Source of the DNA: Polyangiales bacterium
Lineage (GTDB): Bacteria > Myxococcota_A > Polyangia > Polyangiales > Ga0077539
DNA: 64,000 nucleotides
Reading direction: 5' to 3'
Assembly: GCA_044229975.1 (NCBI GenBank)
Contig: JBGARZ010000015.1
Coordinates: forward strand, 32,001-96,000
The notes beneath the pieces were generated by a model. It was given only the letters and a program-made list of their open reading frames with translations. It was not told the origin of the DNA and did no database searches. Positions 2,566-18,443 of the stretch are shown piece by piece. The position numbers and the translations under genes are program-made. The stretch's first letter is position 1. The number at the start of each line of letters is the position of its first letter.

Positions 2566-3177
2566 CTACCGCATCCGCCGCGATCGCTCCCGCTTCACCG
2601 CCGGGTCGCCTTCGTCCTCACGCTCCGTCCGGCGCCGCTCCGCTGTCGTCGTCCGCAACGCCCGCCGCCACGCCCACTGCCGCCACGCGACGTCCACCAC
2701 ACCCAGCGCCAGCACCGTCCCGCCCAGTCGCCACACGAAGCCCCACCCCGGCGCCGCGCCGTCCCACGCGCTCACGCCCACGGCCAACAGCACCGCTCCG
2801 TAGGCCACCGCCATCGTCGCCGTCGCCCACCCGCCCGGCTCTCCCGACGGGCCCTCTGCGTCCGCCGACCGCCACGCGCCGCGCGTCTGCGCCACCGTCA
2901 CCGCCGTCGCCGCCACCACCGCCGCGCCCAACGTCACCCCCAACGGAACCACCACCCGCGCCGCGACGCTCGACGCCGCTCGCCACGGTTCGACGTCCGC
3001 TCTCGCAGTCAGCGTGAGCATCTCGCGCATCGCGCTCCGCAGCGCGGCGCTCAGCGTCGGCAGCGTCGCGAGCACGGCCACCGCCGTCGCTCCGAACACC
3101 GCCACGCCCGACAGCGGCGATCGCCCCTCGCGGAGCGCGCGGTCGAGCTCGCGCGCGGTCGGTGGCTGCGTCGTCAC
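2566..3177 (-). CDS. Short FlhB/EscU-like membrane protein lacking the C-terminal NPTH domain
   Basis: N-terminus 'TQPPTARELDRALREG', hydrophobic core, and 'LRTTTAERRRTEREDEGDPAVK' resemble FlhB/YscU conserved segments. Confidence 0.55.
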   Translation of the reverse strand: MTTQPPTARELDRALREGRSPLSGVAVFGATAVAVLATLPTLSAALRSAMREMLTLTARADVEPWRAASSVAARVVVPLGVTLGAAVVAATAVTVAQTRGAWRSADAEGPSGEPGGWATATMAVAYGAVLLAVGVSAWDGAAPGWGFVWRLGGTVLALGVVDVAWRQWAWRRALRTTTAERRRTEREDEGDPAVKRERSRRMR

Positions 3178-3196
3178 GGCGAGCGATTATAGACGC

Positions 3197-3571
3197 TCAC
3201 TCCGCAGGAACGAGCGCGACCTCGAACATCACCGGCCAGAGCTTCCCCGTCAGGAGAAGGCGTCGCGTCGAGGGCTCGTAGGCGATGCCGTTGAGCACCG
3301 CTTCGGGCTCGGTGAGACCCAGCGAGACTCGTGAGAAGGGCAGCACGATCCAGGCGACGACGCGGCCCGTGGCCGGGTCGATTCGCGCGATGCGGTCGCT
3401 GTGCCAGACGTTGGCGAAGACCTCGCCCTCCACCATCTCCAGCTCGTTGAGCTGGTCGATGGGGTTGCCCCGCCAGGTCACCCGGACGCGTCGTCGCTTG
3501 ACGAAGGTGTCGGGGTCGAGGAAGCGCAGGGTGTCCGTCCCGTCGCTGTGGCGGCGTCGAGCACGCGCACC
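3197..3571 (-). pseudogene. Glutaminyl-peptide cyclotransferase 3' remnant
   Basis: Colinear with 17643-17993 (SDGT, LNELE, VLNGIAY, TGKLW); 202-bp internal deletion at 3547/3548; 5' end missing. Confidence 0.85.
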
Positions 3572-3966
3572 AACCAGCGGTCGCACCGACCTCGCGCTCT
3601 CGCCCGACCTCATCGTCCTGCCGTACAACCTCTTCGTCCCGATGATGCTGCACCGCCTGCTCCGGGGAGATCAGCGCCGTCGGCACAGAGGGCCCTTCGA
3701 TGAGGGCGGGCGCAGCTCCCGACGCACGTCGCCGACCACGCGCACTTCGCAACCGGAGCGTCTGGTCCACTCGAGCGGAGTCGGGCCCGCGAGGGTGCCC
3801 CGTTGAACCTCCTGTCGGCCTCGACATCGCCGGTCGCGATCGTCTCGGCGCGGGGATCGCCGCCATGGCGGCGGGGGTGGCGGCGGGGTGGCGGCGGGCC
3901 GGCGACGGGCCATGCAATCGGAGCGTGACGCCCTGGTTCCCCGGTGATTTTCGGCGGTGTGAGGGC

Positions 3967-3982
3967 TGGCATCGCGCTCGCT
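3967..3982 (+). promoter_or_regulatory. Sigma54-like -24/-12 motif upstream of the transposase
   Basis: TGGCATCGCGCTCGCT fits GG-N10-GC and ends 16 nt before ATG 3999. Confidence 0.35.
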
Positions 3983-3998
3983 CAGGGCCGCGGCGCTC

Positions 3999-5585
3999 AT
4001 GGCCACCGCCGCCACCAATTCGGGCGAGTACGTGCGCCACGACCCGACGCAGACCACGCTGCACGCGCTCGTCGCAAAGCACCTCAAGACCTTCCTCGCG
4101 TTCGCCGAGGAACGCTCGGGACGCGCGCTGCCGCGGTACGTCGTCGAGGAGTTCCACGGGTACCTCCGCTGCGGGGTGCTGGCCCACGGCTTCGGGAGGG
4201 CGCGATGCAGCGGGTGCGGCCACGACATCCTGGTGGCGTTCTCGTGCAAGCTGCGCGGCGTGTGCCCGTCGTGCGGCGGGAGGCGCATGTGCCAGACCGC
4301 GGCGACGGTGTGCGATCGGGTGCTGCCGAACGTGCCGCTGCGGCAGTGGGTGCTGAGCGTCCCGTACGAGCTGCGGAGGGTGCTTGCGGCCGACGCGGCG
4401 ATGCTGACGCGGACGTCGCGGGTGTTCTTCGAGGAGCTGCGCCGCTGGTACCGCGAGGCGAGCGGCCTCGCGCGGAGCGACGTGCTGAAGGTCGAGGCGG
4501 GGGCGATCACCTTCGTGCATCGGGGCGGCGGTTCGCTCAACGCTCATGTGCACCTTCATGTCATCGCTGCGGACGGCGTCTGGCGCTGTGCGACCGACGG
4601 CTCGACGCCGATCTTCGTCGCGACGCGGCCGCCGACGAAGGGCGACCTGGAGGGGGTTCTCGCGCGGGTGGCGGAGCGGGTGGCGAAGGCGATGGAGCGG
4701 GCGGGCGGCGGTGACGGTGACCGCGCGAGGAACGAAGCGCTCGAAGGGTGTCGGCGAGCGGCCAGTGCACGCGGCGAGTATGGCGTGGTGCGCGACGGAC
4801 GGGTGCCGGAGGCAGGCGAGGCCGCGGGCGAGGCGGTCGATGAGGCGCGCTTCGGACGACGGCCTCCGAAGGCGCAGGTGGGCGCGCTGGAGGGGTTCAA
4901 CCTGCACGCGAGCGTGGTGATCGGCGCGACGGACCACGAAGGGCGCGAGCGGCTGCTGCGCTACGTGGCAAGGCCCACGGTGGCGTCCGGGAGGGTGAGC
5001 GAGCTCGCGGATGGGCGCGTGGCGTGGCGGCTGAAGGTGTCCGGCGGGCGCGGGGAGACCCATCGGATCATGGAGCCGATGGAGTTCATGGCTCGCTTGA
5101 GCGCGCTGGTGCCTCCGCCGAGGTTTCCATTGGTGCGGTACCATGGTGTATTCGCACCGAATTCTCCCTGGCGCGTCGCGGTAGTTCCGCTGCGGTCGGC
5201 GTGCGCGGGGGTGAAGGTGAAAGCATGCGCGACTTCGGCGGCGCGTACACGCGAGGGGACGGACGCGACGGAGACGTCTACGACCGCGACCGCGACCGCG
5301 ACGACGGCCCGCGGCGAAGCGAAGGGCGACGACGGGTGGATGTGGACGCCGGACGGCGCCGCGCCGCCAGCGGCAGTACGCACCTCCGGGAGAATGGACT
5401 GGGCCACGCTGATGCACCGCGTGTGGGGCTGGGACGTGCTCGGGTGCCCGCGGTGTGAAGGGCGGTTGCAGTTCATCGCCGTCATCACGCAGCGCGCCGT
5501 GATCGAGCGGATCCTGACGCATGTCGGGCTCTCCGCCGCGCGGATCGTTGCGGCGCCGGCACGGCACTTCGACGACACGAGCTGA
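3999..5585 (+). CDS. IS91/ISCR-like rolling-circle HUH transposase (Zn-binding + Y2_Tnp domains)
   Basis: Zn domain (YLRCG, C..C, FSCKLRGVCPSC), RQWVLSVP, HUH motif NAHVHLHV, LLRYVARP, RYHGVFAPNS, C-terminal CPRC. Confidence 0.93.
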   Translation: MATAATNSGEYVRHDPTQTTLHALVAKHLKTFLAFAEERSGRALPRYVVEEFHGYLRCGVLAHGFGRARCSGCGHDILVAFSCKLRGVCPSCGGRRMCQTAATVCDRVLPNVPLRQWVLSVPYELRRVLAADAAMLTRTSRVFFEELRRWYREASGLARSDVLKVEAGAITFVHRGGGSLNAHVHLHVIAADGVWRCATDGSTPIFVATRPPTKGDLEGVLARVAERVAKAMERAGGGDGDRARNEALEGCRRAASARGEYGVVRDGRVPEAGEAAGEAVDEARFGRRPPKAQVGALEGFNLHASVVIGATDHEGRERLLRYVARPTVASGRVSELADGRVAWRLKVSGGRGETHRIMEPMEFMARLSALVPPPRFPLVRYHGVFAPNSPWRVAVVPLRSACAGVKVKACATSAARTREGTDATETSTTATATATTARGEAKGDDGWMWTPDGAAPPAAVRTSGRMDWATLMHRVWGWDVLGCPRCEGRLQFIAVITQRAVIERILTHVGLSAARIVAAPARHFDDTS

Positions 5586-5692
5586 CGCGAGGGTGGGCAC
5601 CACGGAAGACAACGGCGACAGCAGGCGAACGGCTGACGACGTGAGGCCGCGGCTTGTCTCGAGGGCACGGAGCGAGGGCCGTTGGATTCGCT

Positions 5693-5872
5693 CATCCAGC
5701 GTCCGATCCCTCCTCTCTGTGACCACAATAGCGTGCAGGTACAGTAGGTTACAGAATCAATATTACACGCAACAGTAAAATGTAGGCGCACGGTCTGCAC
5801 CGCGGCGACGTCTGGTTGGGCCGACCGACGGGGTGCTCCTCAAGCCCACGCGGCATTGGACGCCCTATCCAC
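5693..5872. repeat. 180-bp dispersed direct repeat, copy 1 (putative non-autonomous HUH/oriIS unit)
   Basis: CATCCAGCGTCC...GGACGCCCTATCCAC, identical to 9109-9288, with an AT-rich core. Confidence 0.95.
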
Positions 5873-6145
5873 AAAGATCGTCCAGCGCAGCTTCATGAAT
5901 GCTCCTCTCGAAACGTTTTCGCGGTTTGGGAGACGCTCCAGGTCCAGCTTAACAACAATCCTCTTCTGGCCCGGTGCCGCCCAGCAAGATGTCGAGACGA
6001 CCACTTCGTCCGTTTATTCACGCTCGTCTGCAGGCGGCGAAGGCGCTCGGCCCCACGCTCCCCGGCCACCCGGGTGTCCCCCGCGCGGGGCCGTCTCGGC
6101 GAGCTTCCAGCGCCCTCGGCCGAGGAGCATCAGAGAGGTCCATCC

Positions 6146-6871
6146 CTACCCGACCGTCCGCTCGAGGCGAATTTCGACCTCGCGCTCGACGAACGTCCAC
6201 TCCTCTCGCGAGCGCAACATGCCGACGAGGTCGTCGAAGGCGCCGCGATGCTCCGGGGCCATCTCGAACCACGTGAGAAAGTCGAACGGCTCCCCAAGGT
6301 CCCTTGAATGGTAAAGTCTTCGGGCAATGCGAGGCAGGTAGGCCATGCTGTCGGCGATGTGGTGGGAACGTGCCTCGAAGATGGCGCGACGCTCGTCCTG
6401 CGGGAGCGCCCACCAAGCAGGGGACTTGCGTATCGGAATGAGCACCGCGAGCGTTGCCTCCGGCCTCGCGAGGGGTGGACTCTGGGAGTCCAGGCGCGCC
6501 TTCTCGCTTCGCTCGACGTACCTGGCATGGCTCGTGACTCCGCGAAGAGCCCACGAGTCATTGCCCTGAGCCGGCGTCTCCGCGAGGCCAGCGAGCACAG
6601 CCACCCGGCTCACCGCGGACAGCGCATCCCCGCGAATCGCAGACATACCTGTCACGCGCCACGGCCCCTCCCTGCCTCCTGTGAAGGTCGCTTGGACTAC
6701 TCCTGGTCGGGTCATTCTCTTCGCCTCTTGAGCTCGGGGTGATGGTGGCGACTGGGGAGGTTCCGCCCCAGCTCCCTTGGCGTTCACGTGGCAGCCGGCC
6801 TCGAGGGCGGCGAGGGTGCAGCTCGCGCCCGCGAGCATGAACGTGCGTCTCGTTGTTCGATGTGCCTTCAT
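6146..6871 (-). CDS. cld: Chlorite dismutase family protein (short, clade-II-like)
   Basis: IPIRKSPAWW...ERRAIFE...HH...LP.IARRLYHSRDLGEPFDFLTWFE...EEW.FVERE. Confidence 0.85.
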   Translation of the reverse strand: MKAHRTTRRTFMLAGASCTLAALEAGCHVNAKGAGAEPPQSPPSPRAQEAKRMTRPGVVQATFTGGREGPWRVTGMSAIRGDALSAVSRVAVLAGLAETPAQGNDSWALRGVTSHARYVERSEKARLDSQSPPLARPEATLAVLIPIRKSPAWWALPQDERRAIFEARSHHIADSMAYLPRIARRLYHSRDLGEPFDFLTWFEMAPEHRGAFDDLVGMLRSREEWTFVEREVEIRLERTVG

Positions 6872-6884
6872 TTTCCGCGCCTCG

Positions 6885-7100
6885 TTAAGGCAACACGCAT
6901 TTTCCGCTGATACACTTCGCTCCCCTTGGGCAGGCCTTTCCGCATCCGCCGCAGTTTCCAGGGTCCGTCATTTTGTCGATGCACTTACCCCCGCTAGAAG
7001 CAAACGAACAGAAACTTTTCGGTGCATCACACGTCTGGCACCGATAGGCCCCGTCGGGTCGCTTGAAGCACTTTTGGGGCGACTCGCACGACATACCGCA
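6885..7100 (-). pseudogene. 3' fragment of a Cys-rich myxobacterial repeat protein
   Basis: SCGMSC...DPGNCGGCGKAC...C; the 5' end is cut at the 54-bp repeat. Confidence 0.7.
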
Positions 7101-7209
7101 AGAGCGTAAGTAAATCAAGGCACTTTTCAGGGGTGTCGGCTGGGCTCGCGGGGATGGCGTTTCGCGACCTTCCGGGGTCGCGGCGGGCGCGCCGAGGCGG
7201 TCTCGGCCC

Positions 7210-7224
7210 TGGCACGGAGGTTGC
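7210..7224 (+). promoter_or_regulatory. Sigma54-consensus motif inside the IS91-like end
   Basis: TGGCAC-GGAGG-TTGC. Confidence 0.4.
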
Positions 7225-7284
7225 CGAACCCCACCAAGCGCCATGCCGGCGCAGCGCGGCCTTCGGGCGCCCCTTGCGCACGTT

Positions 7285-8159
7285 CTACTCGGCTGCCTCG
7301 ACGCTACCGGCACCTCGACGGAGGACTCGACTTGCCCAGTACGGAGGCCCTCGAGCGGGCGTGCGCTTCGGCACGTCGGTGGGCTCGCCAATGCCCCGCA
7401 GGTACCGAGCGACGCTGGTCGGATCGGTGACGAGCGCGAGCAGCTTCATCCTTCCGCTGCAGCACGGGCAGGTCAAAACGTCGAACCCAAAGGTCCGTTT
7501 AAGAAGCTCCGCCCACGGACGATAGCCGCCTCGGCGCGGTCTCTCGGGCACGTCCACCGTGGGTATTGGAGCAACCGCCGGCTTCGGCGCCAGACGAGCC
7601 CGAACCTTACTCGCCGACGCGAGCACCCCCGCATACCGAACGGTGTGCAAGCGCGGCGCGGGTACCGACGCCGCGAGACGGCTGAGCAGCGAGAGTGGAT
7701 CCATGTCCACCGCCACCGTGCCGTCCGAAAAAGGCTTCTTCAGCGTGATCCGGACGAGGCCGTCAGGCCCTCGGGTCACGCGTTCCTGCGCGACCGCGGG
7801 GCGCAACACGTACTTCAGCAGTGCCTCCCGGCCAGCTTCGTCGTGCCCACCGGCCCGCGTCGCCGCGTGGAGGGTGAAACCATCGAGCGCGACACACAGC
7901 GGGCGCTCGAACACCATGGGTCGGCACTCGAAGAGCAGCGCGCCTCGGCGCCACTCCGGACCGGCAGGCGGCGTAGTGCCCGAGACCGCCGACGCCGCGA
8001 GCACGGCCCTCCCGTCGCCCTCATCCTCGGAATCGCTGTCCTCGACGAGAAGGCCCCGACGACGAAGCCACTTCACCATCCGGTCGCGCGTGCGCTCCAG
8101 CACCGCCCCCACGTCCCGCGTCGACAGGTGCCGAGCGGCACGGAAGTCGAGCTCGTCGC
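7285..8159 (-). pseudogene. C-terminal half of a second IS91-like transposase
   Basis: GFTLHA, LLKYVLRP, RYAGVLA, WAELLKRTFG.DVL.CPCC; the Zn domain and HUH motif are absent. Confidence 0.9.
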
Positions 8160-8213
8160 TCCCCGCGAGCCCAGCCGACACCCCTGAAAAGTGCCTTGAT
8201 TTACTTACGCTCT

Positions 8214-9111
8214 CGGACTGGGTAAGACCGAGGCAGTAGCCGTAGAGGGTCTCGAGCTCGGCGTCGTCGTTCTTCGGGGTCTGCTCGCGGAGCTCGCGGA
8301 GGAGCACGAGCGCGGAGGGGAGCTCGGCGCGACGGACGAGGCCGCGCGCTTTGAGCCGCGCGAGGACCGGATCGCGGGCCGCCTCGCCCTTGGTCGAAGG
8401 GGGCGGAGGCTCGGGCGTGCTCGCGGGCGCCTTCTGCGCGTTCATGATCCGCGGCTCGCTCATCGGCGGCTCTTTGCGCGGATCGTAGGGCTCCGCGCGC
8501 TTCTGCACACCGGAGATGGGGATCTCGACCGACGGAGGCCGGAGCGGGCTCGGGGCGCGGAACTGCATCGACGCGCGGCGGAGCGCCTCCGTCTCGGGGG
8601 TGACCGTGGCGACACGAGCGCGCCGGAGGAGCAGGAGGGCGTACACGATTCGCGCATCGACCGCCGACACGCGCGAGAGCTCGAACGCGCTGAGCGGCTT
8701 CGGCTCCGACAAGAGCTTCGCGACGCGCGCCTCGGCGTCGGAAAGCTCGAGGTCGGCGAGCTGCTCGAGGAGGCCGAAACCCGATGCACCTTGCACGTAT
8801 CCCGCGAGCACGATCGGCCGATCGCCGACGCGATCGAGGGCTTCTCGTGCGCGGGGGGGCAAGAACACCTCGCGGAGACCACGGAGCACGGCGCGCCCCA
8901 CCGACACCGGCACGTCGTCGCGCCCATAGGTGGGGATGAGGTCGAGGCGGTCGTAGAAGCCGAACCGGGTGCTGCCCGGAAGGTGGAAGAGAGACGCGAG
9001 CTTGCGCGTGAGCTGCTCGCCGACCGCGATCGCGACGAGGTCGGGGGACACCATGCCCCGCTCCTTCACGATGTCCCCGAAGAGCACCTTCGGCGTACGG
9101 GTGGAGGCCAT
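8214..9111 (-). pseudogene. Internal fragment of a myxobacterial DUF4388/DnaJ-type protein
   Basis: 'LFGDIVKERG..EQLTRKLASLFHLP..F.FY..DL..YG' followed by a Pro-rich linker and a TPR-like helix; cut at both ends by repeats. Confidence 0.55.
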
Positions 9112-9288
9112 CCAGCGTCCGATCCCTCCTCTCTGTGACCACAATAGCGTGCAGGTACAGTAGGTTACAGAATCAATATTACACGCAACAGTAAAATGTA
9201 GGCGCACGGTCTGCACCGCGGCGACGTCTGGTTGGGCCGACCGACGGGGTGCTCCTCAAGCCCACGCGGCATTGGACGCCCTATCCAC
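9109..9288. repeat. 180-bp dispersed direct repeat, copy 2
   Basis: Identical to 5693-5872. Confidence 0.95.
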
Positions 9289-9351
9289 CGGTCTCCTGGG
9301 GGTGCGCCTGCGCTGTCGACGCCTACGGGTCGCGGTTCTCCCCAGGCAGCG

Positions 9352-10362
9352 TCACTGCCGCATGCAGCGGAACCCGACGCCGGTCGAGTACGACACCTCG
9401 AGGCCCTCGCGGTACCAGGCGCGCACGTCGTTGGCGCTGGTGCTGCGCCAGTTGCCTCCACGGATGATCCGGATCGTGCTGCCCCCCGTGCTCACGGGGT
9501 CGTCCACGTACGTGGTCATATTGCCCGTATAGGTGAAATACCGGTCCGAGGTGAGCTCGGCGATGCCCCCGCCCATATCGAACAACCCACGAGCCCCTGC
9601 GGGGAACATGCGCACCGGGCAGGTGTTCGGCTGGATGGTGCCGCCGCCACTCCAGCACAGTTGAGCGCCGGGCGCCTCTGGCCCCCACGGGTACATCCGT
9701 CCGTCGACCCCGCGCGCCGCGTACTCCCACTGCGCTTCGGTGGGGAGGCTCGCGCCACCGCGCCACACGCAGTACGCGATCGCCTGCTCCGCCGTGACGC
9801 AGTTGATCGGGTGATCGTCGCGCCCGGAGACGCCCCAATTGCAGGCCGGGAGCGTCGCCGTCGGCGTGCACCCCATCGCGGTCGGACACTCGCGATAAGC
9901 GCGCACGGTCACCTCGGTGACGTCCAGGCAGAACGCCCTCAAGCGAACGCCATGCACCGGCAGGGCGAGCGGCTCCGTCCCCGTCGCATCCCCCATCAGG
10001 AACTGACCTGCGGGGATGAGCGCCATGCCCGCAGGACAGCCCGTCCCCGTGTCGGTTGTCCCGACGTCGGTTGTCCCGATGTCGGTTGTCCCGATGTCGG
10101 TTGTCCCGATGTCGGTTGTCCCGATGTCGGTTGAGCCGATGTCGGTTGAGCCGATGTCGGTTGTCCCGATGTCGGTTGAGCCGGAGTCCGCGGGAGGGGC
10201 GTCGATCGCCAGGGGGCGGTCGTCGGGGGCATCCGTCGCGACGTCCGATGGGCTGCCTGCGTCCGGCGAGCGCGAGTAGTACCTCCAATCGTCGCGGACA
10301 CAGGCGAGCGCGCCCACGACGGTCCAGAGCGCGACGAGTCGACCTACCCGGCGGAGAGGCAT
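9352..10362 (-). CDS. FGE-sulfatase/SUMF1 domain lipoprotein
   Basis: Lipobox LAC; FCLDVTEVT, HPINCV, LPTEAQWEYAARG, RGGNW, GFRC. Confidence 0.9.
   Translation of the reverse strand: MPLRRVGRLVALWTVVGALACVRDDWRYYSRSPDAGSPSDVATDAPDDRPLAIDAPPADSGSTDIGTTDIGSTDIGSTDIGTTDIGTTDIGTTDIGTTDVGTTDTGTGCPAGMALIPAGQFLMGDATGTEPLALPVHGVRLRAFCLDVTEVTVRAYRECPTAMGCTPTATLPACNWGVSGRDDHPINCVTAEQAIAYCVWRGGASLPTEAQWEYAARGVDGRMYPWGPEAPGAQLCWSGGGTIQPNTCPVRMFPAGARGLFDMGGGIAELTSDRYFTYTGNMTTYVDDPVSTGGSTIRIIRGGNWRSTSANDVRAWYREGLEVSYSTGVGFRCMRQ
10051..10185. repeat. Nine tandem 15-bp coding repeats (encoding TDIG[T/S])
   Basis: GTCGGTTG(TC/AG)CCGAT x9. Confidence 0.95.
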
Positions 10363-10453
10363 CGGCAGACCGTCCCCCGCAGCGGTCGGCGCTGTCAACG
10401 CCGATGGGCATGGCGGGCCGCTGCGCAGAGACCCCGCGGCGCCGCCCTGGACG

Positions 10454-10939
10454 TCAGTCGCGCGTCACCCCGGCATCGCACACCGCGCGGACGACGCAGC
10501 GCCATCGCAGACCAGCCTCCGCCGCGCCGCAGTAGCAGTCCCAGTCGAGGAGCCTCCGGTTGCCCGGGCTGCCGCAGTTCCACCAATTCTCGCAGTAGAC
10601 GCCTGGCGTGTCGCACTGGCCCTGGTCGCCCGACGGGTCGAACTGGAAGCAGGTGTGGAGGTCACCCTCGCAGTCGAAGAAGCGCATCAACTCGGCGCAC
10701 GAGCGCACGCGCCCACCGACCTCGCTCGCCATCACGGGACGATCGAAGCCGACATCCGGGGCGGGAACATCCGATGCGACCGTGGCATCCATCGCGTCGA
10801 TGTCGTTCACATCGGACACGTCGGACGCATCGATCACGGCTGCATCCGCGCTCGCGTCCGTCGGGCCGCGCGGGTCTTCGTCGCACCCCATGGCGAGCGC
10901 CGCGATCAGCGCTCCGAGTCCGTGAACACGCTCCACCAT
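10454..10939 (-). CDS. Small Cys-rich lipoprotein
   Basis: Lipobox AMGC, Asp/Ala linker, Cys-rich C-terminus. Confidence 0.6.
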   Translation of the reverse strand: MVERVHGLGALIAALAMGCDEDPRGPTDASADAAVIDASDVSDVNDIDAMDATVASDVPAPDVGFDRPVMASEVGGRVRSCAELMRFFDCEGDLHTCFQFDPSGDQGQCDTPGVYCENWWNCGSPGNRRLLDWDCYCGAAEAGLRWRCVVRAVCDAGVTRD

Positions 10940-11183
10940 CTGATCACGAGTGGTACATCCAAAGCGGCCGCCAGGCGCGCGACGGGGAGTCACCGGCGGT
11001 AGCGGTCGACGAGGTCGCCACGGCCATGGCGATCGCGGTCGCATCATACCGGAGCCGCTGTACGGTCAACCTGGCGGGCCGTGGTGGCCGGGGACCGACG
11101 AAGCGGTGGAGGCCTCGTTTTTACCGAGAAGTGTATGCACCGAAGGGTCCGTGTCCCCTTCGGAGTCCAGAGACCTCTCTGCG

Positions 11184-11397
11184 GTTCGACGCGATGGTCG
11201 GCAGTCCCGTGAGCCAGACCCGGAGCGCGAGCGACGGCCACTGCCGACGCGACGCCCGCGTTGCCAGATTGCTTTCCGGCACGTGGAGATCGCTCTTCGA
11301 AAGCGTCGTCGGAGTTCTCGACTGGCAACGCGAGCGTCGCGTCCCGTGGCTCGCGCTCCGGGTCTGGCTCAGGGGACTGCCGACCATCGCGTCGAAC
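11184..11397. repeat. 214-bp intergenic foldback (REP/MITE-like) element
   Basis: 49-bp arms 11184-11232 / 11349-11397 with one mismatch, plus a further inner stem. Confidence 0.85.
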
Positions 11398-11465
11398 TGG
11401 AGATGGCATCGCCGTCGACTGGCCCGACGTTGACCCATCCACGGTCGCTCGGCGAAGGTTCCGCC

Positions 11466-13319
11466 ATGAGCACCCGACCGACCGCCGCATCGTGGACCCT
11501 GCTCGTGGTCGCCCTCGCCGCGTCGGCCTGCTCGTCGGACAACCTGGTCGCGGGCGTCGACGGCGGCGGCTCCGTCGATGTCCCCATCATCACCAATGAC
11601 CTCGGCGCAACCATAGATGCGCCCGTCGATGTGTCCACGATCGACGCTCCTGCGGTCGACGTGCCCTTCCGATGCGCCTCCGAGGCCGACTGCTCGGGCA
11701 ACACCACGGGCTCCGTCTGCGATGTGGCCACTGGCCGCTGCGTTGCCTGCACCGCCGCGCGCGACGTGTGCCCGACCGGCCAGCGCTGCGACGACGCGAG
11801 CCACGCGTGCGTCGCCGGGTGCCGCGACGACTCCTCGTGCGCCACGACCACGGGAGCCGACAGCTCGGTCGGCGCTCGCCGCCGCTGCGACCTCAACTCG
11901 CGCGCCTGCGTCGACTGCCTCGTCAACGACGACTGTCCCGCCGGGACCCTCTGCGTCGGCAACCTCTGCGTCGCCGGCTGCGCCGGTGGGAGCCGCTGTC
12001 CCACGGGCCAGAGCTGCTGCGCCGGCGCGTGCGTCGACACGCTCGCCAACGTGGCGCACTGCGGCCGATGTGATGCGCGGTGCAGCGTTCCCAACGGGGG
12101 CGCCTCGTGCCTCAACGGCGCATGCTCGGTGGCCACCTGCGCGGCCCCGTACGGTGACTGCGACCGCGACGCCGCCAACGGGTGCGAGACCAACACGCTC
12201 ACCGCCGTCGCCCACTGCGGCGCGTGCGGCGCCGCCTGCCCCACGCGCGCCAACGCCAGCGCCACCTGCGCGGGCGCGACCTGCGGGTACACCTGCAACG
12301 CGGGCTTCGCCGACTGCGACGGCGACGCGACCAACGGCTGCGAGGTCGACACCCGCACCGACACCGCCCACTGCGGAACCTGCACGACGATGTGCTCGCT
12401 CCCGCGTGCAACAGCGGCGTGCGTGGCAGGCGGGTGCCAGGTCACGGCCTGCACCGCGGGCTACGCGGACTGCGACGGCGCAGCGTCCAACGGCTGCGAG
12501 AGCGACACGCGGGTCGACGTCTCCCATTGCGGCGGGTGCGGTCGGGCCTGCGCCGTCCGACCGAACGCGGCGCCCGCCTGCGTAGGCTCCGCCTGCGTGA
12601 CGACGTGCATCGCGGGGTACTCCGACTGCAACACCGTCGAGGCCGACGGGTGCGAGCGCAACCTGCGCAACGACCCGGCCAACTGCGGCGCGTGCGGGCG
12701 CGCGTGCGGAGCGGGCGGTGCGTGCTGCGAGGCGACCTGCGCGACGACCGCCAGCGACCCGGCCAACTGCGGCGCGTGCGGGCACGCATGCGCAGCGAAC
12801 GAGGCCTGCGAGTCGGGTCGCTGCCAGGCCGCGCTCGGGTGCGCGTCGGGGCCGAGGCGGGGGTTCACGGACGTCGCTGCGTTTCCGCGCATCGCGGCGT
12901 GTGGGGCGCGGGTGAGCTTCGCGGCGGCGACGACGACGGCGGCCACGGTGTGCGCGCCGGGCTGGCACTTCTGCAACCCCGCCGACCTCAACGCGACGAC
13001 GGGGACAGCGCCGGACTTCGTCCCGGCCGACGCGATGGGGTGGGTGCTCTACACCGACCCGACGACGACGGTGTGGGGCGACTACTCGGTCGCCGCGTGC
13101 GGCGGGGTGACGCCCGCGGTGGCGAACCTCGCGGGCACTGGTGCGTGCACGGCTTCGGGGGTCTACCCCGAGGGCTGGCGGCTCGCGACGTCGACGTCGT
13201 ACTGGCCGTGGTCGCACCGCAGCAGCAGCGGGTGCGTCGAGCACGCGGTGCACATGTGCATCACCGACGGCGGGACGATCCCGGCGACGACGGCGTACGT
13301 GCTCTGCTGCGCGCCCTGA
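11466..13319 (+). CDS. Cys-rich repeat lipoprotein
   Basis: Lipobox ASAC; many DC(D)G...NGCE and HCGxCGxAC repeats. Confidence 0.85.
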   Translation: MSTRPTAASWTLLVVALAASACSSDNLVAGVDGGGSVDVPIITNDLGATIDAPVDVSTIDAPAVDVPFRCASEADCSGNTTGSVCDVATGRCVACTAARDVCPTGQRCDDASHACVAGCRDDSSCATTTGADSSVGARRRCDLNSRACVDCLVNDDCPAGTLCVGNLCVAGCAGGSRCPTGQSCCAGACVDTLANVAHCGRCDARCSVPNGGASCLNGACSVATCAAPYGDCDRDAANGCETNTLTAVAHCGACGAACPTRANASATCAGATCGYTCNAGFADCDGDATNGCEVDTRTDTAHCGTCTTMCSLPRATAACVAGGCQVTACTAGYADCDGAASNGCESDTRVDVSHCGGCGRACAVRPNAAPACVGSACVTTCIAGYSDCNTVEADGCERNLRNDPANCGACGRACGAGGACCEATCATTASDPANCGACGHACAANEACESGRCQAALGCASGPRRGFTDVAAFPRIAACGARVSFAAATTTAATVCAPGWHFCNPADLNATTGTAPDFVPADAMGWVLYTDPTTTVWGDYSVAACGGVTPAVANLAGTGACTASGVYPEGWRLATSTSYWPWSHRSSSGCVEHAVHMCITDGGTIPATTAYVLCCAP

Positions 13320-13364
13320 TTCTCTCCCGACGGCTCCGCGCGGCAATGCAGCGTATCGAGACCT

Positions 13365-14276
13365 TCAGCGTGACGCTTCGTTCACGAGCCAATCGCGGAA
13401 GGCGACCAGCTTCGGAAGGGCGGCGCGCTCGGGCCGATAGACGATGTAATAGGCAAGCACCGAGGAGAACTCGACGTCGGGGAAGAGCCGCACCAGCCGG
13501 CCCGCCGCCAGGTCGTCCCGCGCCATGATGCTGCGGGCCAACGCCACGCCCAGCCCGTCGATCGCCGCCTGGAGCACCCCGGCGGAGTTGTTGATCCGTA
13601 GGCCTCGCTTCGTTTTGACGTCGCCCATCCCGGCCTTCTCCAACCACGCGTCCCACGTCGCGAAGCCGGAGTGCGCGTCGACCGACAGGTCGTGGATGAG
13701 GCTCGGTCCGGCAAGGTCCGCCGGCCTGCGAAATCGGCGGTTTCGCTGGAAGACGGCCGGAGAACAGACGGGATAGATCTCCTCGTCCATGAGCTTCTCG
13801 GCAGTCAGGCCCGGCCACGTCCCGGCGCCGTAGCGCACCCCGATGTCGATGCCGCGTGCGGCGAAGTCGAGCACCTCCATGGAGGCGTCGAGCCTCACGT
13901 CCGTGTCGGGCCACCGCGCTTGAAACCGCTCGATGCGTGGAAGTAGCCACTTGGCCGCGAAGGCCGGGCTGACGGTCACGGTCAACACGCCGTTGGCCGA
14001 CCCCTCCTTGAGTCGCGCAAAGCCGAGGCTCAACCGGTCGAACCCCGCGCGGATGTCAGGCAGGGCGCGCTGAGCCGCCTCGGTCGGCACAAGCCGCGTC
14101 CGGCCGCTCGTACTTCGATGAAACAGCGCCGTGCCGAGCGTCTCCTCCAGGCTTCGTACGAGCTGCCCGACGGCCGCGGGCGTCACGTGGAGCTCGGACG
14201 CGGCGGCCGAGAAGCTCTCGTGCCGAGCGCTCGCCTCGAAGGCGCGCAGCGCGTTCAGATGATCGGGCGCCCTCAA
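13365..14276 (-). CDS. LysR-family regulator, GcvA-like
   Basis: LNALRAFEASARHESFSAAASELHVTPAAVGQ HTH; WLLPRIERF; GLGVALAR. Confidence 0.92.
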   Translation of the reverse strand: MRAPDHLNALRAFEASARHESFSAAASELHVTPAAVGQLVRSLEETLGTALFHRSTSGRTRLVPTEAAQRALPDIRAGFDRLSLGFARLKEGSANGVLTVTVSPAFAAKWLLPRIERFQARWPDTDVRLDASMEVLDFAARGIDIGVRYGAGTWPGLTAEKLMDEEIYPVCSPAVFQRNRRFRRPADLAGPSLIHDLSVDAHSGFATWDAWLEKAGMGDVKTKRGLRINNSAGVLQAAIDGLGVALARSIMARDDLAAGRLVRLFPDVEFSSVLAYYIVYRPERAALPKLVAFRDWLVNEASR

Positions 14277-14489
14277 GGACGGCCAAGACTTTCTTTGCCA
14301 GCAACCAAGATCTTATGCTTTGCGATGTCCCGCCTTCGCATCGATATTGGAGTCTCACGGATCGAGGAAAACTCCCGACGTCGGCGCGACACGGCCCCTT
14401 GGGTCACACGAACCCAGGCCTGCCGTCAAGAGCGCTTGTCGGGACAGTTTTTCTTTCACACAACGCCTCGTGTCCCAAGGAGAACCCCA

Positions 14490-14771
14490 ATGGTCTATTT
14501 GCAAATCACCCTACAGATCGCCCCCGCCAACCGACCCGCGGCTGCGGATGTCTACCGGCGCTATCGGTCGCCCTTTCTCGACACGGTCGCCGGGGCGAAG
14601 TCGAAGGTCCTGCTCGTCCGCGAGGACGACGTCCAGGTGCTGCACGGCTTCGATACGGCAGAACAGGCGAACGCCTACCTGAAGAGCGCTCTCTTCACGG
14701 CCGACGTCGTCGGCGCGCTCAAGCCGCTGCTCGCCGCCGCGCCGGACGTCCGGGTCTATCAAGCGGCCTGA
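14490..14771 (+). CDS. Small conserved protein divergent from the LysR gene
   Basis: RBS AAGGAG; 93 aa MVYLQITL...EDDVQVLHGFD. Confidence 0.75.
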   Translation: MVYLQITLQIAPANRPAAADVYRRYRSPFLDTVAGAKSKVLLVREDDVQVLHGFDTAEQANAYLKSALFTADVVGALKPLLAAAPDVRVYQAA

Positions 14772-14802
14772 CGCCCTCCCGCGCAGGCGACTACGCCGAC
14801 GC

Positions 14803-15399
14803 TCACCCCAGCACGCGCACCCTGAACCCTCCGAGCAGGGTCACCACCTTCGTCAGCGGCAGCCCGATCACCGCCGTGAAGTCGTCTCCGCGTATCCCCT
14901 CGAAGAGCGCGATGCCCAGCGACTCCACCCGGTACGAGCCCGCGCAGTCCAGCGGCGCGTCCCTCGCCACGTAGTCCGCGATCTCCTCGTCCGTCAGCGC
15001 CCGCATCGTCAGCGTGTGCGTGTCGATCATCGTCTCGGTGCGACCGCTCGCCCGGTGATGCACCGCCACCGCCGTGTGCTGCCGGTGCTCACGGCCCGCC
15101 AGCCGCCTCAGCTGAGCCCTCGCCCGCTCCGCTGTATGCGGCTTGCCCAGCGCCTCGCCGTCGACCTCGCCCATCTGGTCGGCGCCGATGATCACCGCGT
15201 CTGGAAACGCCTCGCCCAGACCCACAGCCTTCCCGATGGCCAGCACTCGGGCTCGCTCGGGGATGGGCAGCGCGCCGAGTCCGTCCTTCGCGGCCTCCTC
15301 GTCGAAGGGCGTCGCCATACACTGCACGGTAATCCCGAGCCGCTCGATGAGCTCCCGGCGGTACCGCGACGTCGATGCGAGGATCACCGTCGTCGTCAT
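14803..15399 (-). CDS. maf: Maf family nucleoside triphosphate pyrophosphatase
   Basis: ILASTSRYRREL, FDE, IGADQ, LGKP, PLDCAGSY, IGLP. Confidence 0.92.
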   Translation of the reverse strand: MTTTVILASTSRYRRELIERLGITVQCMATPFDEEAAKDGLGALPIPERARVLAIGKAVGLGEAFPDAVIIGADQMGEVDGEALGKPHTAERARAQLRRLAGREHRQHTAVAVHHRASGRTETMIDTHTLTMRALTDEEIADYVARDAPLDCAGSYRVESLGIALFEGIRGDDFTAVIGLPLTKVVTLLGGFRVRVLG

Positions 15400-16002
15400 G
15401 CGAGTGGATCGTCCACTTCGACCTCCGCCGCCCGCTGCCGCCGCGCCGCCAGCCGAGACTGCGCGTACTTCACCAGCGGTTCGACGTACGCGTCGAACGG
15501 CGGACACTCCACCCCGCGCGCCATGAGCAGGCCGCGCGCCCCCGTGTCGGCGTAGCGCGCCCTCGTGGCGAGGCGATCGACGAAGGCCCGCGGGCTGCGG
15601 GTGAGCCGCTCCAACCCCGGCGTGTTGAGCAGCGCCCGTGTGAGGTTCACCGGAACCATCCCCCGCGGAACCCTCCGCCCCGCCACCTGCGCGATGCGCT
15701 CGAAGGCCGCACCCGTCGACGGTGGCGTCGGGTCGACCACATGGAAGGTTCGCCCCACCGCTTCGCGTGCCGCCCCGAGCGCAACCCCCGCCCGCGCCAC
15801 GTGATCGACCGGAACCACATGCAGCGGCAGGTCACCGCCCGCCGGCAATGGGAGCTGCATGTCCACCGGCGAGCTCAGCATCAACACGATGAAGAGGTAC
15901 GGCCCGTCGAAGAGGTCGATCTCGCCGGTCTGCGAGTCGCCCACGATCATCGACGCGCGCAGCACCGTCACCGGCAGCGTGGTCATCGCGCGTCGCAGCA
16001 GC
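15396..16002 (-). pseudogene. C-terminal fragment of an SDR/NAD-dependent epimerase
   Basis: LPVTVLRASMIVGDS, VVPVDHVA; the N-terminal Rossmann fold is missing, cut at repeat copy 3. Confidence 0.8.
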
Positions 16003-16175
16003 CATCCAGCGTCCGATCCCTCCTCTCTGTGACCACAATAGCGTGCAGGTACAGTAGGTTACAGAATCAATATTACACGCAATAGTAAAATGTAGGCGCA
16101 CGGTCTGCACCGCGGCGACGTCTGGTTGGGCCGACCGACGGGGTGCTCCTCAAGCCCACGCGGCATTGGACGCCC

Positions 16176-17187
16176 GGCTCATGTTCCCCTCGGGGTGATG
16201 GGCCTGAGCAACTGGGCGAGGAAGCCCAGGAAGTCGTGCCGGAAGTTGTGCATGCCTTGGTAGAAGGCCAGGTAGAGGTCGAGGTTCCACTTGCTCACGC
16301 CGCGGAAGGGTCGGAGGTAGTTCCGCAGGCCGAGCCAGAAGCCCTCGATGGTGTTGGAGTGCACCTCTCGGATGCCGTCCCCATCATCGTCGCGCGCCCA
16401 CTCCTTGCGCTTGTGGTTGACCGAGAAGCGCGTTCGACCTCGGTCGTCTAGGTCGTCGTAGGCATGCCACTCATCGGTGTGGACCTCGGTGCCGGGGTCC
16501 GTCACGCGCAGGACCACGGGCTCGATCGCCTTCACCGTGCTGCGATACGTCTGCCGCAGGAACACTTGACCGGACTCCCGGCCAATCACTCCGAGAATGG
16601 GCGGGCGATCGTTGTCGAAAGTGCCATGTCCATTGAAGTGATGGCCGCGCCGACGCGGTGGGTCATCGGGATCGGGATGGGGGCGGCCCTTCTCCCCGGC
16701 GTTCTGGTACATCTCGTCGGCTTCCACGAGACGATCGGGCAGGGCGCAGGGGGGAAAAGCGTTCAAGCGCCATGCCCTGAACGCGGTGTCGCAGTCGGAG
16801 CAGGTTGCGTCGACCGACACCAAGCTCCTGCGACAGATGCAGCGTAGTAACGCCCTGACAGAAGCCGCGCAGGATCATGACCAATCGCGGGGACGAGAAG
16901 CGCACTCCCTGAAGCGGCGTGCCGGTGAACACGTTGAAGACCTTGCCGCAGGCGCGACAGCGGTAGTCCACCACGGGCTCACGGTGACGATCATGGGGCG
17001 CTTGATCGTCGGGTAGCTCGTGTCCCTCGGGGCAGCGGAGGCCCTCCGGGTGGATCGCCTCCAGCAGCAGCCGGTAGCACGCGCCCTCGTCCAGCAGGTC
17101 GTCGATCGGGAACAGCATCGTGCCTGATCCGTACCTCCAACCGGAGCTCCCCGGAAGGGGGCGTTCACCCCGAGGGGAACATGAGCC
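16176..17187 (-). mobile_element. IS1595-family (ISXO2-like) insertion sequence, 1012 bp
   Basis: Perfect 23-bp TIRs GGCTCATGTTCCCCTCGGGGTGA; 8-bp TSD GGACGCCC (16168-16175 / 17188-17195). Confidence 0.93.
16179..17118 (-). CDS. IS1595 transposase split over two frames
   Basis: Zn-ribbon ORF from ATG 17118; DDE ORF with VEADEMY, HTDEW, VNH, HSNTIEGFW; frame change at TTTTCCCCCC near 16755. Confidence 0.85.
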
Positions 17188-17202
17188 GGACGCCCTATCC
17201 AC

Positions 17203-17623
17203 CACCGTCCCACGCGCTCACGCCCACGGCCAACATCACTGCCCCGTAGGCCAATGCCATCGCCGCCGTCGCCCACGGGCTCGGCTCCCCCGACGGACCC
17301 TCCGCGTCTGACGACCGCCACGCGCCGCGCGTCTGCGCCACCGTCACCGCCGTCGCCGCCACCACCGCCGCGCCCAGGGTCACCCCCAACGGAACCACCA
17401 CCCGCGCCGCGACGCTCGCCGTCGCCCGCCACGGGTCGACGTCCCCGCGCGCAGCCTGCGTGAGCATCTCGCGCATCGCGCTTCGTAGCGCCGCGCCCAA
17501 GGCCGGCAGCGTCGCGAGCACGGCCACCGTCGTCGCGCCGAACACCGCCACGCCCGACACGGGCGATCGCCCATCGCGGAGCGCGCGGTCGAGCTCACGC
17601 GCGGTCGGCGGCTGCGTCGTCAC
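17203..17623 (-). pseudogene. 3'-truncated paralog of the FlhB-like gene at 2566-3177
   Basis: Colinear with 2761-3177 and cut at the end of repeat copy 3. Confidence 0.85.
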
Positions 17624-17642
17624 GGCTCGCGATCATAGACGC

Positions 17643-18443
17643 TCACTCTGCCGGAACGAGCGCCACCTCGAACATCACCGGCCAGAGCTTGCCCGTCAGG
17701 AGAAGTCGCCGCGTCGAGGGCTCGTAGGCGATGCCGTTGAGCACCGCCTCGGGTTCGGTGAGGCCGAGCGAGAGGCGCGAGAAGGGCACCGTGATCCACG
17801 CGACGACGTGGCCGGTGGCCGGATCGATGCGCGCGATGCGGTCGCTGTGCCAGACGTTGGCGAAGACCTCGCCCTCCACCATCTCCAGCTCGTTGAGCTG
17901 GTCGATGGGGTTGCCCCGCCAGGTCACCCGAACGCGTCGTCGCTCGACGAAGGTGTCGGGGTCGAAGAAGCGCAGGGTGTCGGTTCCGTCGCTCATGATG
18001 AGGAGGTGGCCGTCGTGCGTGAGGCCCCAGCCTTCGCCCTCGTAGCCATGAGTGGTCACGGGCTCTAGCGTCGCGGCGTCGTACACGAAGCAGGTCTGCG
18101 TCTGGTAGGTGATCTGGAAGACGCGGTTGCCGAGGACGGTGAGCCCTTCGGCGAAGTGTTCGTCGGACACCTCGCGGCGTCGCGTGATGGCGCCGGTGGT
18201 GGCGTCGAGCACGCGCACCGACGACCGGCCGCGCAGGCCGGTGCTCTCGTAGAGGGCACCCGCGTGGAAGGTGAGCCCCTGGAGGAACGCCTCGCGATCG
18301 TGGGGAATGCGCGCGATGACGCGGGCCGTGTAGCGCGTCGGCGGCGTGGTCGGGGCGGTCGGAGCCGCGGGCGCGACGGGCGAGGGGAGGGCGGGGAAGC
18401 AGCCCGGGAGCATGACGAGGGCGACGACGGACAGGCGCACCAT
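17643..18443 (-). CDS. Glutaminyl-peptide cyclotransferase (type I) lipoprotein
   Basis: PHD..AFLQGL, LYESTG, FAEGL, GEGWGLT, SDGT, LNELE, VLNGIAY. Confidence 0.92.
   Translation of the reverse strand: MVRLSVVALVMLPGCFPALPSPVAPAAPTAPTTPPTRYTARVIARIPHDREAFLQGLTFHAGALYESTGLRGRSSVRVLDATTGAITRRREVSDEHFAEGLTVLGNRVFQITYQTQTCFVYDAATLEPVTTHGYEGEGWGLTHDGHLLIMSDGTDTLRFFDPDTFVERRRVRVTWRGNPIDQLNELEMVEGEVFANVWHSDRIARIDPATGHVVAWITVPFSRLSLGLTEPEAVLNGIAYEPSTRRLLLTGKLWPVMFEVALVPAE

Follow-up and report, generated by a model that had tools for sequence, protein, structure and literature searches.

In a 64,000-nt stretch of DNA from a Polyangiales bacterium (here called the window), a 180-nt repeat is probably the end module of an ISCR-like rolling-circle transposon. 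The module would begin at a fixed inner site, contain a dif-like site, and finish in an origin-type end, and it separates unrelated fragments in a one-directional array. The adjoining transposase likely releases the unit and closes it around a fragment of DNA, with the host XerC/XerD recombinases inserting the resulting circle. We are also inclined, somewhat less firmly, to the wider proposition that this is a distinct bacterial platform for DNA acquisition, in which an HUH transposase packs arbitrary kilobase fragments, from the host or its relatives, into circles with an end module that mimics dif, and host XerCD stacks and reshuffles the arrays. A first-pass annotation of this DNA had described a mobile unit with a junction hairpin; neither the dif-like core nor the arrayed, unrelated cargo was recognized there.

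RESULTS

Organization of the array

The features of the window are as follows.

2759..3547, no strand assigned: left copy of a 789-bp duplication, 91% identical to 17205-17993; the pair brackets the whole structure
3686..3818, plus strand: diverged 133-nt-type unit belonging to a second, related system in the genome; lies immediately before the transposase gene
3859..3900, plus strand: tandem GGTGGCG boxes with a palindrome, found upstream of most related transposases
3999..5585, plus strand: IS91/ISCR-like HUH transposase, 528 aa, with zinc-binding and Y2_Tnp domains (Pfam)
5677..5692, plus strand: transposase-side half of the inner site (GTTGGA box), a diverged copy of the origin box
5693..5872, plus strand: unit copy 1, adjacent to the transposase, 180 nt, ends set from homologous empty sites
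5746..5773, minus strand: dif-like site, with XerC-type arm 5773-5763, centre 5762-5757, and XerD-type arm 5756-5746
5852..5872, plus strand: oriIS-type end, including the terminal CCAC, of the same form as the ISCR1/ISCR2 ends
5873..9108, no strand assigned: cargo A, 3236 bp, between copies 1 and 2; an ORF within it, without assigned function, ends at copy 2
6146-6871, minus strand: chlorite-dismutase-like gene in cargo A
7101-8213: inverted-repeat element in cargo A, 1113 bp
9109..9288, plus strand: unit copy 2, identical to copy 1, dif-like site at 9162-9189
9289..16002, no strand assigned: cargo B, 6714 bp, between copies 2 and 3; genes for an FGE-sulfatase, a STIG1-repeat protein, LysR, Maf, and NAD_binding_4, the last cut in mid-domain at copy 3
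16003..17202, plus strand: unit copy 3, one substitution, in pieces 16003-16175 and 17196-17202
16176-17187: IS1595-family element interrupting copy 3, with an 8-bp duplication (16168-16175/17188-17195)
17205..17993, no strand assigned: right copy of the 789-bp duplication, joined to the origin end of copy 3 at 17202

The three copies of the unit set apart 3.2- and 6.7-kb stretches of unrelated DNA. They are the only three in the 10-Mb assembly (BLAST), and all follow the transposase in the same orientation. A collapsed 180-bp repeat could have been mis-assembled into such an array, as copies 1 and 2 are identical and the region is spanned by no contig of the four sequencing runs compared. However, the same layout occurs with non-identical copies in many independent assemblies, some of 1 to 6 contigs, and we find this explanation hardly credible.

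The cargo A ORF to the left of copy 2 has no homologue in 30 other genomes of the family (E ≤ 1e-15). An Rfam search of 3500-9600 gave no match at E ≤ 5, and the linear unit folded no better than shuffles (z, +1.33 and −0.63); a reading of the unit as a structured RNA was rejected on these two results. No sigma-70 promoter was found in 5550-5950.

Several smaller elements were noted in and around the array. The element at 7101-8213 has perfect 54-bp terminal inverted repeats with a Y2_Tnp (IS91-type) fragment inside, and near-identical copies are present in contigs of 4 of 4 wastewater/sludge-type runs compared. Cargo B holds a 226-bp element (11178-11403) with 60-bp inverted arms at 93%. Ahead of the 133-nt-type unit, 3548-3684 is a patchwork of short gene pieces: 22 nt of a glutamine cyclotransferase gene after a deletion of ~200 bp, then ~107 nt that are 90% like C10:164502. 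Elements starting with GGCTC(A/G)TG break unit origin ends at nearly one place in several genomes (window 16176-17187; L015; L154; G000:C24:12468), which suggests that these elements, IS1595-like in the window, have a target preference at unit origin ends.

The transposase

The transposase scores over the cutoffs for PF04986 and PF14319 and thus has the domains of the IS91/ISCR family. Its HxH motif lies at residues 185-187, with H185 and H187 invariant, and R321-Y322 is invariant in 12 relatives. Tyr322 is the single tyrosine of the motif ERLLRYVARP; ISCR1 and ISCR2 likewise have one (RY..RP motif), whereas IS91 uses a catalytic pair, Y249 and Y253, spaced four residues apart (PMC5714925). 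Identity to ISCR1/ISCR2 is 33%, and the protein falls below the cutoffs of both NF033538 (IS91; 90.9 bits versus 125) and NF052416 (ISCR clade Ia; 275.5 bits versus 925). In a quick tree of 39 rows, which excluded three loci with no intact ORF and several of the tested loci, one branch (SH-aLRT 99), apart from that of ISCR1/ISCR2, took in 9 of 12 array-heading proteins; the remaining 3 fell outside it with weak support.

The GGTGGCG boxes are conserved 100 to 140 nt upstream of related transposases, with no sharp boundary, and are a candidate terIS or regulatory region. A second transposase in the genome, 50% identical, has its own 133-nt unit (G000:C14:204918-206630, with C15, C32, C19, C10, C1, C23, and C24); this unit type gave 28 profile matches in the source genome, some in arrays and one just upstream of the window transposase. 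Transposases L049, L050, and L066 (G026, G024) begin ~300 nt from a tRNA-like 3' end, as judged by eye, hinting at a larger integrative element.

Boundaries of the unit

Two sites are conserved downstream of the transposase gene in family homologues at 46 to 86% identity: an inner site (GTTGGA..TCG.T/CA) ~100 nt past the stop codon and an outer site (GTTGGA...CCTAT plus 4 nt) 110 to 190 nt beyond the inner one. The first-pass annotation had proposed aligning these downstream ends and had noticed that the sequence just after the transposase resembles the right end of the repeat; the alignment bears this out, with the former a diverged second copy conserved across the family. Every left junction coincides with the inner-site point equivalent to 5692/5693, where we infer that the unit is released. 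All 32 defined left ends begin with CA; 27 right ends fitted the pattern, with 12 non-fitting ones left out. A DNA search matched the unit in 5 of 8 congeners, and its profile gave 43 matches in the 25 sequences searched.

In ISCR1, the distance from the stop codon to the end of CCTATACCC is 232 nt, the same length as PMC6218425 gives for its oriIS region, and the four bases after CCTAT are therefore part of the element. The end in the window, like the oriIS of ISCR elements, lies downstream of the gene and consists of CCTAT plus 4 nt. Judged by its sequence, 5872 is an ISCR-type origin end, in agreement with the earlier identification of an IS91/ISCR origin.

The first-pass annotation had placed a mobile unit at 5696-5868. 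This interval is 173 nt long as stated, the motifs quoted for it are all in place (ATCCA at 5694-5698 and 5867-5871, arms at 5699-5710 and 5852-5863, and the look-alike at 5677-5699), and the unit does move as a module; its register, however, is wrong. On the left flank of copy 3, CATCC is absent from 9 of 9 homologous empty sites, and on the right flank CCAC is absent from 6 of 6, one of them projected over 100 nt. Donors in G191 at 100% and 95% identity are likewise without the terminal 4 nt. More generally, homologues matched the first three bases of the unit in 9, 4, and 3 cases at 13 left joints and its last four bases in 4, 2, 2, and 3 cases at 9 right joints (112 matches). Within arrays the terminal 4 nt are inherited: CCAC three times in the window, TCGC in G002:C148, and CCTC in 6 of 6 copies in genus g9. 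Absent from empty sites and inherited in arrays, the 4 nt after CCTAT do not behave as an IS91-type target tetranucleotide. Finally, one natural joint of a cargo-less head-to-tail pair of units was found, with both ends whole and in full register. The empty sites lacking CAT and CCAC, the donors, and this whole-ended joint together define the unit as the full 180 nt, 5693-5872.

These boundaries largely refute the model that accompanied the 173-nt interval, which we now consider very improbable. It supposed a minicircle whose junction hairpin is nicked at TGG^AT and which inserts, in the manner of a MITE, at targets of the CAT^CCAC type. A circle of the bottom strand is indeed the active intermediate of IS91 (PMC13181058), and the predicted 10-pair stem can form; across 27 close copies its eight inner pairs keep their plus-strand complementarity almost without exception. 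However, folding both strands, a check suggested at the time, gave a weak signal: the joined ends of 5696-5868 form 10 pairs at −7.9 kcal/mol on the minus strand (P = 0.086; 300 dinucleotide shuffles), with P = 0.023 on the plus strand. Stem pairing was 85% in the close copies, with covariation not beyond shuffles, and none of 15 transposase-adjacent units across lineages had a hairpin at P < 0.05. As a conserved signal the hairpin was rejected; it may yet have a local role in the window's own lineage. Nicking at TGG^AT also conflicts with the natural tandem joint, which keeps both ends whole. The joint predicted by the model was absent from the genome and the compared loci. A search of sequencing runs returned assembled contigs, with shares up to 0.39, and no joint at the unit was among 15 of 177 joints listed (four of 18 runs). 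Two weak hints came from run contigs: one of 176 nt covers the unit alone, and another matches 5873-5943 and then apparently, in the orientation as read, continues into unlike DNA at 5873.

A dif-like core and the host Xer system

Positions 5746-5773 are AT rich and have an 11-6-11 layout on the minus strand. A matrix from the arms of 27 units found one strong site outside units in 10 Mb, at C38:71448 (37.7; next, 18.6). Allowing ≤1 mismatch, 15 of 31 genomes of the family have this site, 14 of them in a single copy; among congeners, 7 of 8 have it once. Its distance from the cumulative GC-skew maximum of its own contig is 45 kb, and a rough switch in an E. coli polarity motif lies near it. 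Single-copy, skew, and polarity-type criteria are those used for dif in PMC2731167. G000:C38:71448-71475 is likely the chromosomal dif of the source genome. Its XerD arm reads TTCTGT, versus TTATGT in table rows of PMC2731167.

The window unit shares 16 of 22 arm bases with this likely dif and 10 of 11 in the XerD arm; like dif and pdif sites, it is thus an 11-6-11 site resembling the host dif with the XerD arm best kept. A dif match at P < 0.05 was present in 16 of 21 transposase-adjacent units and absent from 5, and the ISCR1 and ISCR2 origin regions gave no significant dif match. Host-specific XerC-arm variants are common to the unit sites (CGCAGAA in G038, CCGATAA in G179, and CGCATAA in G191), while the orientation of the site within the unit varies between lineages. 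A host xerD gene is present, scoring over the family cutoff. The core of the unit is a putative XerC/XerD site resembling each host's likely dif. Neither a transposase nor a full unit was found within 1.5 kb of eight likely dif sites, and there was no unit match on contig C38, which bears the likely host dif.

Several units are mosaic at or near this site. In hand-picked triplets, 5 of 7 (four units) switch parent at columns 64-76, the edge between XerD arm and centre. An unselected scan of the first unit type found 10 mosaics in 351 pairs, 6 breaking inside the site and 4 about 13 columns beyond, and the second unit type gave 4 in 276, all inside the site and three at the centre edge; these pairs are not independent of one another. 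The scan in genus g5 reflects conservation rather than crossover and is uninformative.

A ~2.5-kb element (L305:2254-4760 and other copies on G191:C3) occupies a fixed point in many units, one base past the XerC-type arm. Its ORFs, judged by eye, are tyrosine-recombinase-like and two-tyrosine IS91-type. The dif-like site is a hotspot for this second element.

Arrays, cargo, and joints

The array layout also recurs in three other families and, within the family, in no fewer than three further genera; arrays behind the transposase occur in genera g1, g5, g9, and g4 and in families f17, f9, and f53. G002:C11 has seven units in one orientation over 21 kb, and G191 has 11 full forward copies within 31 kb, among 21 matches in 60 kb. 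Four units were found in G019, three in G027, three in G030, and four in G026, with further arrays in G011, G038, G179, and G221. In a listing of 51 transposase loci (six of them duplicates), 12 of 17 distinct loci at ≥45% identity have a same-strand repeat of the region after the stop codon, one of these repeats including the gene end. Below 45% identity, 9 of 28 have some repeat and 5 of 28 have clear unit arrays. Across systems, the unit ranges from 80 to 190 nt.

The joints lie inside genes, with no bias of strand or frame (n = 106). All units end in NTG on the minus strand, and a role in start-codon fusion was considered and rejected because the frame and strand of the cargo are unbiased (21/15/16 versus 20/18/16 of 106). 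GC stands at the cargo end of 50 of 66 left joints (background, 0.137) and C or T at the cargo start of 54 of 69 right joints. On the minus strand, the captured fragment thus usually starts with GC and ends in a purine. The last 1.2 kb of cargo B shares 87% identity with the Maf locus of the host itself and 75 to 85% with the orthologues in 8 of 8 congeners, indicating that it came from a relative. In G191, some cargo pieces are 95 to 100% identical to the bearer's own genome; most apparent donors are homologues at 75 to 95% and not the true source.

The flanks of a unit never fitted together (0 of 13 contiguity tests, 11 of them informative, on 10 units), so the units are not simple insertions. 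Simple MITE insertion, with solitary units and contiguous flanks, was rejected on the 11 informative tests. It is also possible that the arrays are an IS91 by-product formed in two steps, the unit first transposing as a miniature element to a purine-GC site and a later round of replication reading through the flank and stopping loosely, with the circle then rejoining the array through recombination by RecA, transposase, or Xer. Both miniature origin-end fragments and read-through have been documented, for IS801 in PMC3189936 and for IS91 in PMC13181058. At 12 of 13 left joints the GC is followed by C or T in homologues, which is expected of a target site, and the 789-bp bracketing duplication fits integration of a circle by homology. 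However, this explanation predicts solitary units with contiguous flanks, observed in 0 of 11 cases, and GC before the origin joints of first-step insertions, which was seen in 1 of 9 and in 0 of 2 near-identical donors. We regard it as unlikely.

In nine arrays, copy 2 was identical to copy 1 in four, 95 to 97% identical in three, and 73 to 83% identical in two; in G191 the two copies are identical in 2 of 3 arrays. This pattern may be explained by capture in place, with a fragment pasted into copy 1 while the unit is replicated, growth only beside the transposase, and the dif-like site serving later shuffling or resolution. The identity of copies 1 and 2 in 4 of 9 arrays, the tendency of identity to drop with distance, and the whole inner site in copy 1 only would all suit this explanation. 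However, mosaicism at or near the dif-like site extends to transposase-adjacent copies as well (G002:C11 copy 1), and separate arrays, as in G191, contain identical cassettes, and we therefore consider growth by capture in place quite improbable. Polarity within arrays is loose, with a distal G191 copy still at 100%. Inverted and half units are present too, indicating that origin ends also insert outside tidy arrays.

Two other arrangements were observed. In G191, a 340-bp piece (L274:1890-2229), 100% identical to the genome's second contig, has origin ends joined on both sides. The cargo at G000:C15:189470-183360 has one 231-bp sequence (99%) at both its start and its end, as though a circle had been copied with overshoot.

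Proposed mechanism

The preferred reading, release of the unit followed by closure around a fragment and Xer insertion, starts from what can be read in the DNA itself (the boundaries, arrays, unrelated flanks, joint preferences, and dif-like core); its reactions are put forward conditionally, by analogy with IS91 biology and with IMEX arrays, which grow by successive XerCD integrations (PMC9226527). For IS91, bottom-strand circles are described as the active intermediate and read-through is documented (PMC13181058); for IS801, miniature origin-end fragments and read-through are documented (PMC3189936). In a first step, the transposase would nick the minus strand at the origin end, 5872, and end at the inner site, 5692/5693, releasing the unit as a single strand. 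As only the transposase-adjacent copy has a whole inner site, that copy would be the template. In a second step, of which the joints are seen, the two ends of the unit would be joined to the two ends of a fragment. In a third, Xer recombination between dif-like sites would insert the circle into an existing unit, which is thereby doubled; cassettes would be excised and reshuffled by this reaction too. This scheme explains the doubled units, the tandem pair without cargo, the mosaics, and the cassettes found in more than one array. The tandem pair and the identical cassettes in different arrays would fit integration of a circle.

DISCUSSION

The first making of gene cassettes and of dif modules is an open question, and here both seams of a cassette are visible at single-base resolution. 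The origin and spread of extra dif sites are described as little studied in PMC6449649, and PMC6218425 states that, as of 2018, no experimental transposition had been reported for ISCR-like transposases. The array gives such transposases an active-looking natural substrate, and a transposon end module offers a source for dif-like sites and new cargo, as compared with pdif modules. As a candidate enzyme adjoins the array and the module is only 80 to 190 nt, cassette creation can be tested in a plasmid assay. Arbitrary DNA is likely collected here, in an integron-like manner, by a strand-nicking enzyme together with the host's own recombinases. If our reading is true, the system would be an equivalent of the integron, making cassettes of its own and spreading dif-like sites across the genome. 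It points to a way in which Myxococcota of sludge, soil, and freshwater could store horizontally acquired DNA and may provide a compact tool for the capture of DNA fragments.

The array in the window is likely an undescribed type of DNA-capture array, a statement conditional on the coverage of the open-access literature, in which we found no paper describing arrays of an IS91/ISCR end module that contains a dif-like site. The nearest published hint is the ISCR28 "sandwich" as presented in PMC12772301, in which two origins surround one gene.

The closest relatives are ISCR1 and ISCR2/ISVsa3. Their transposases are 33% identical to that of the window and likewise have a single motif tyrosine, and they share an origin end of CCTAT plus 4 nt lying 230 to 290 nt past the stop codon and variable DNA beyond the origin; bracketing duplications of flanking genes are also a feature of ISCR elements. 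However, the window system stands on a separate branch of the quick tree and below the NCBIfam clade Ia cutoff, and its end, unlike that of ISCR elements, forms a discrete module that has a fixed inner boundary, holds a dif-like core, and recurs between unrelated fragments. IS91, IS801, and IS1294 share the HUH transposase family and have origin-end fragments that are mobile without a transposase gene of their own. IS91 differs in its two catalytic tyrosines and its tetranucleotide target, where the window system has one tyrosine and no target tetranucleotide, and the miniature right-end fragments of IS801 (229, 360, and 679 nt) are solitary, whereas the units described here form arrays with unrelated flanks.

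Among Xer-dependent systems, the IMEX arrays at dif (CTX, TLC) similarly combine an HUH rolling-circle enzyme with a dif-like site in arrays built by XerCD (PMC9226527). IMEX are phages that integrate at the chromosomal dif, whereas arrays of the window type lie elsewhere, at their own repeated site, and contain arbitrary fragments of chromosome. The pdif or dif modules of Acinetobacter also hold accessory DNA between 11-6-11 dif-like sites and are thought to be shuffled by host XerCD. The example module in PMC6449649 has XerC/D and XerD/C sites and whole genes; in the window, by contrast, the sites lie within a transposon end module and form direct repeats. Integrons resemble these arrays in having one enzyme gene at the head of a one-directional row of repeat-separated, exchangeable cargo. 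Here, however, the head gene encodes an HUH transposase in place of an integrase, and the cargo is cut regardless of gene ends, strand, or frame.
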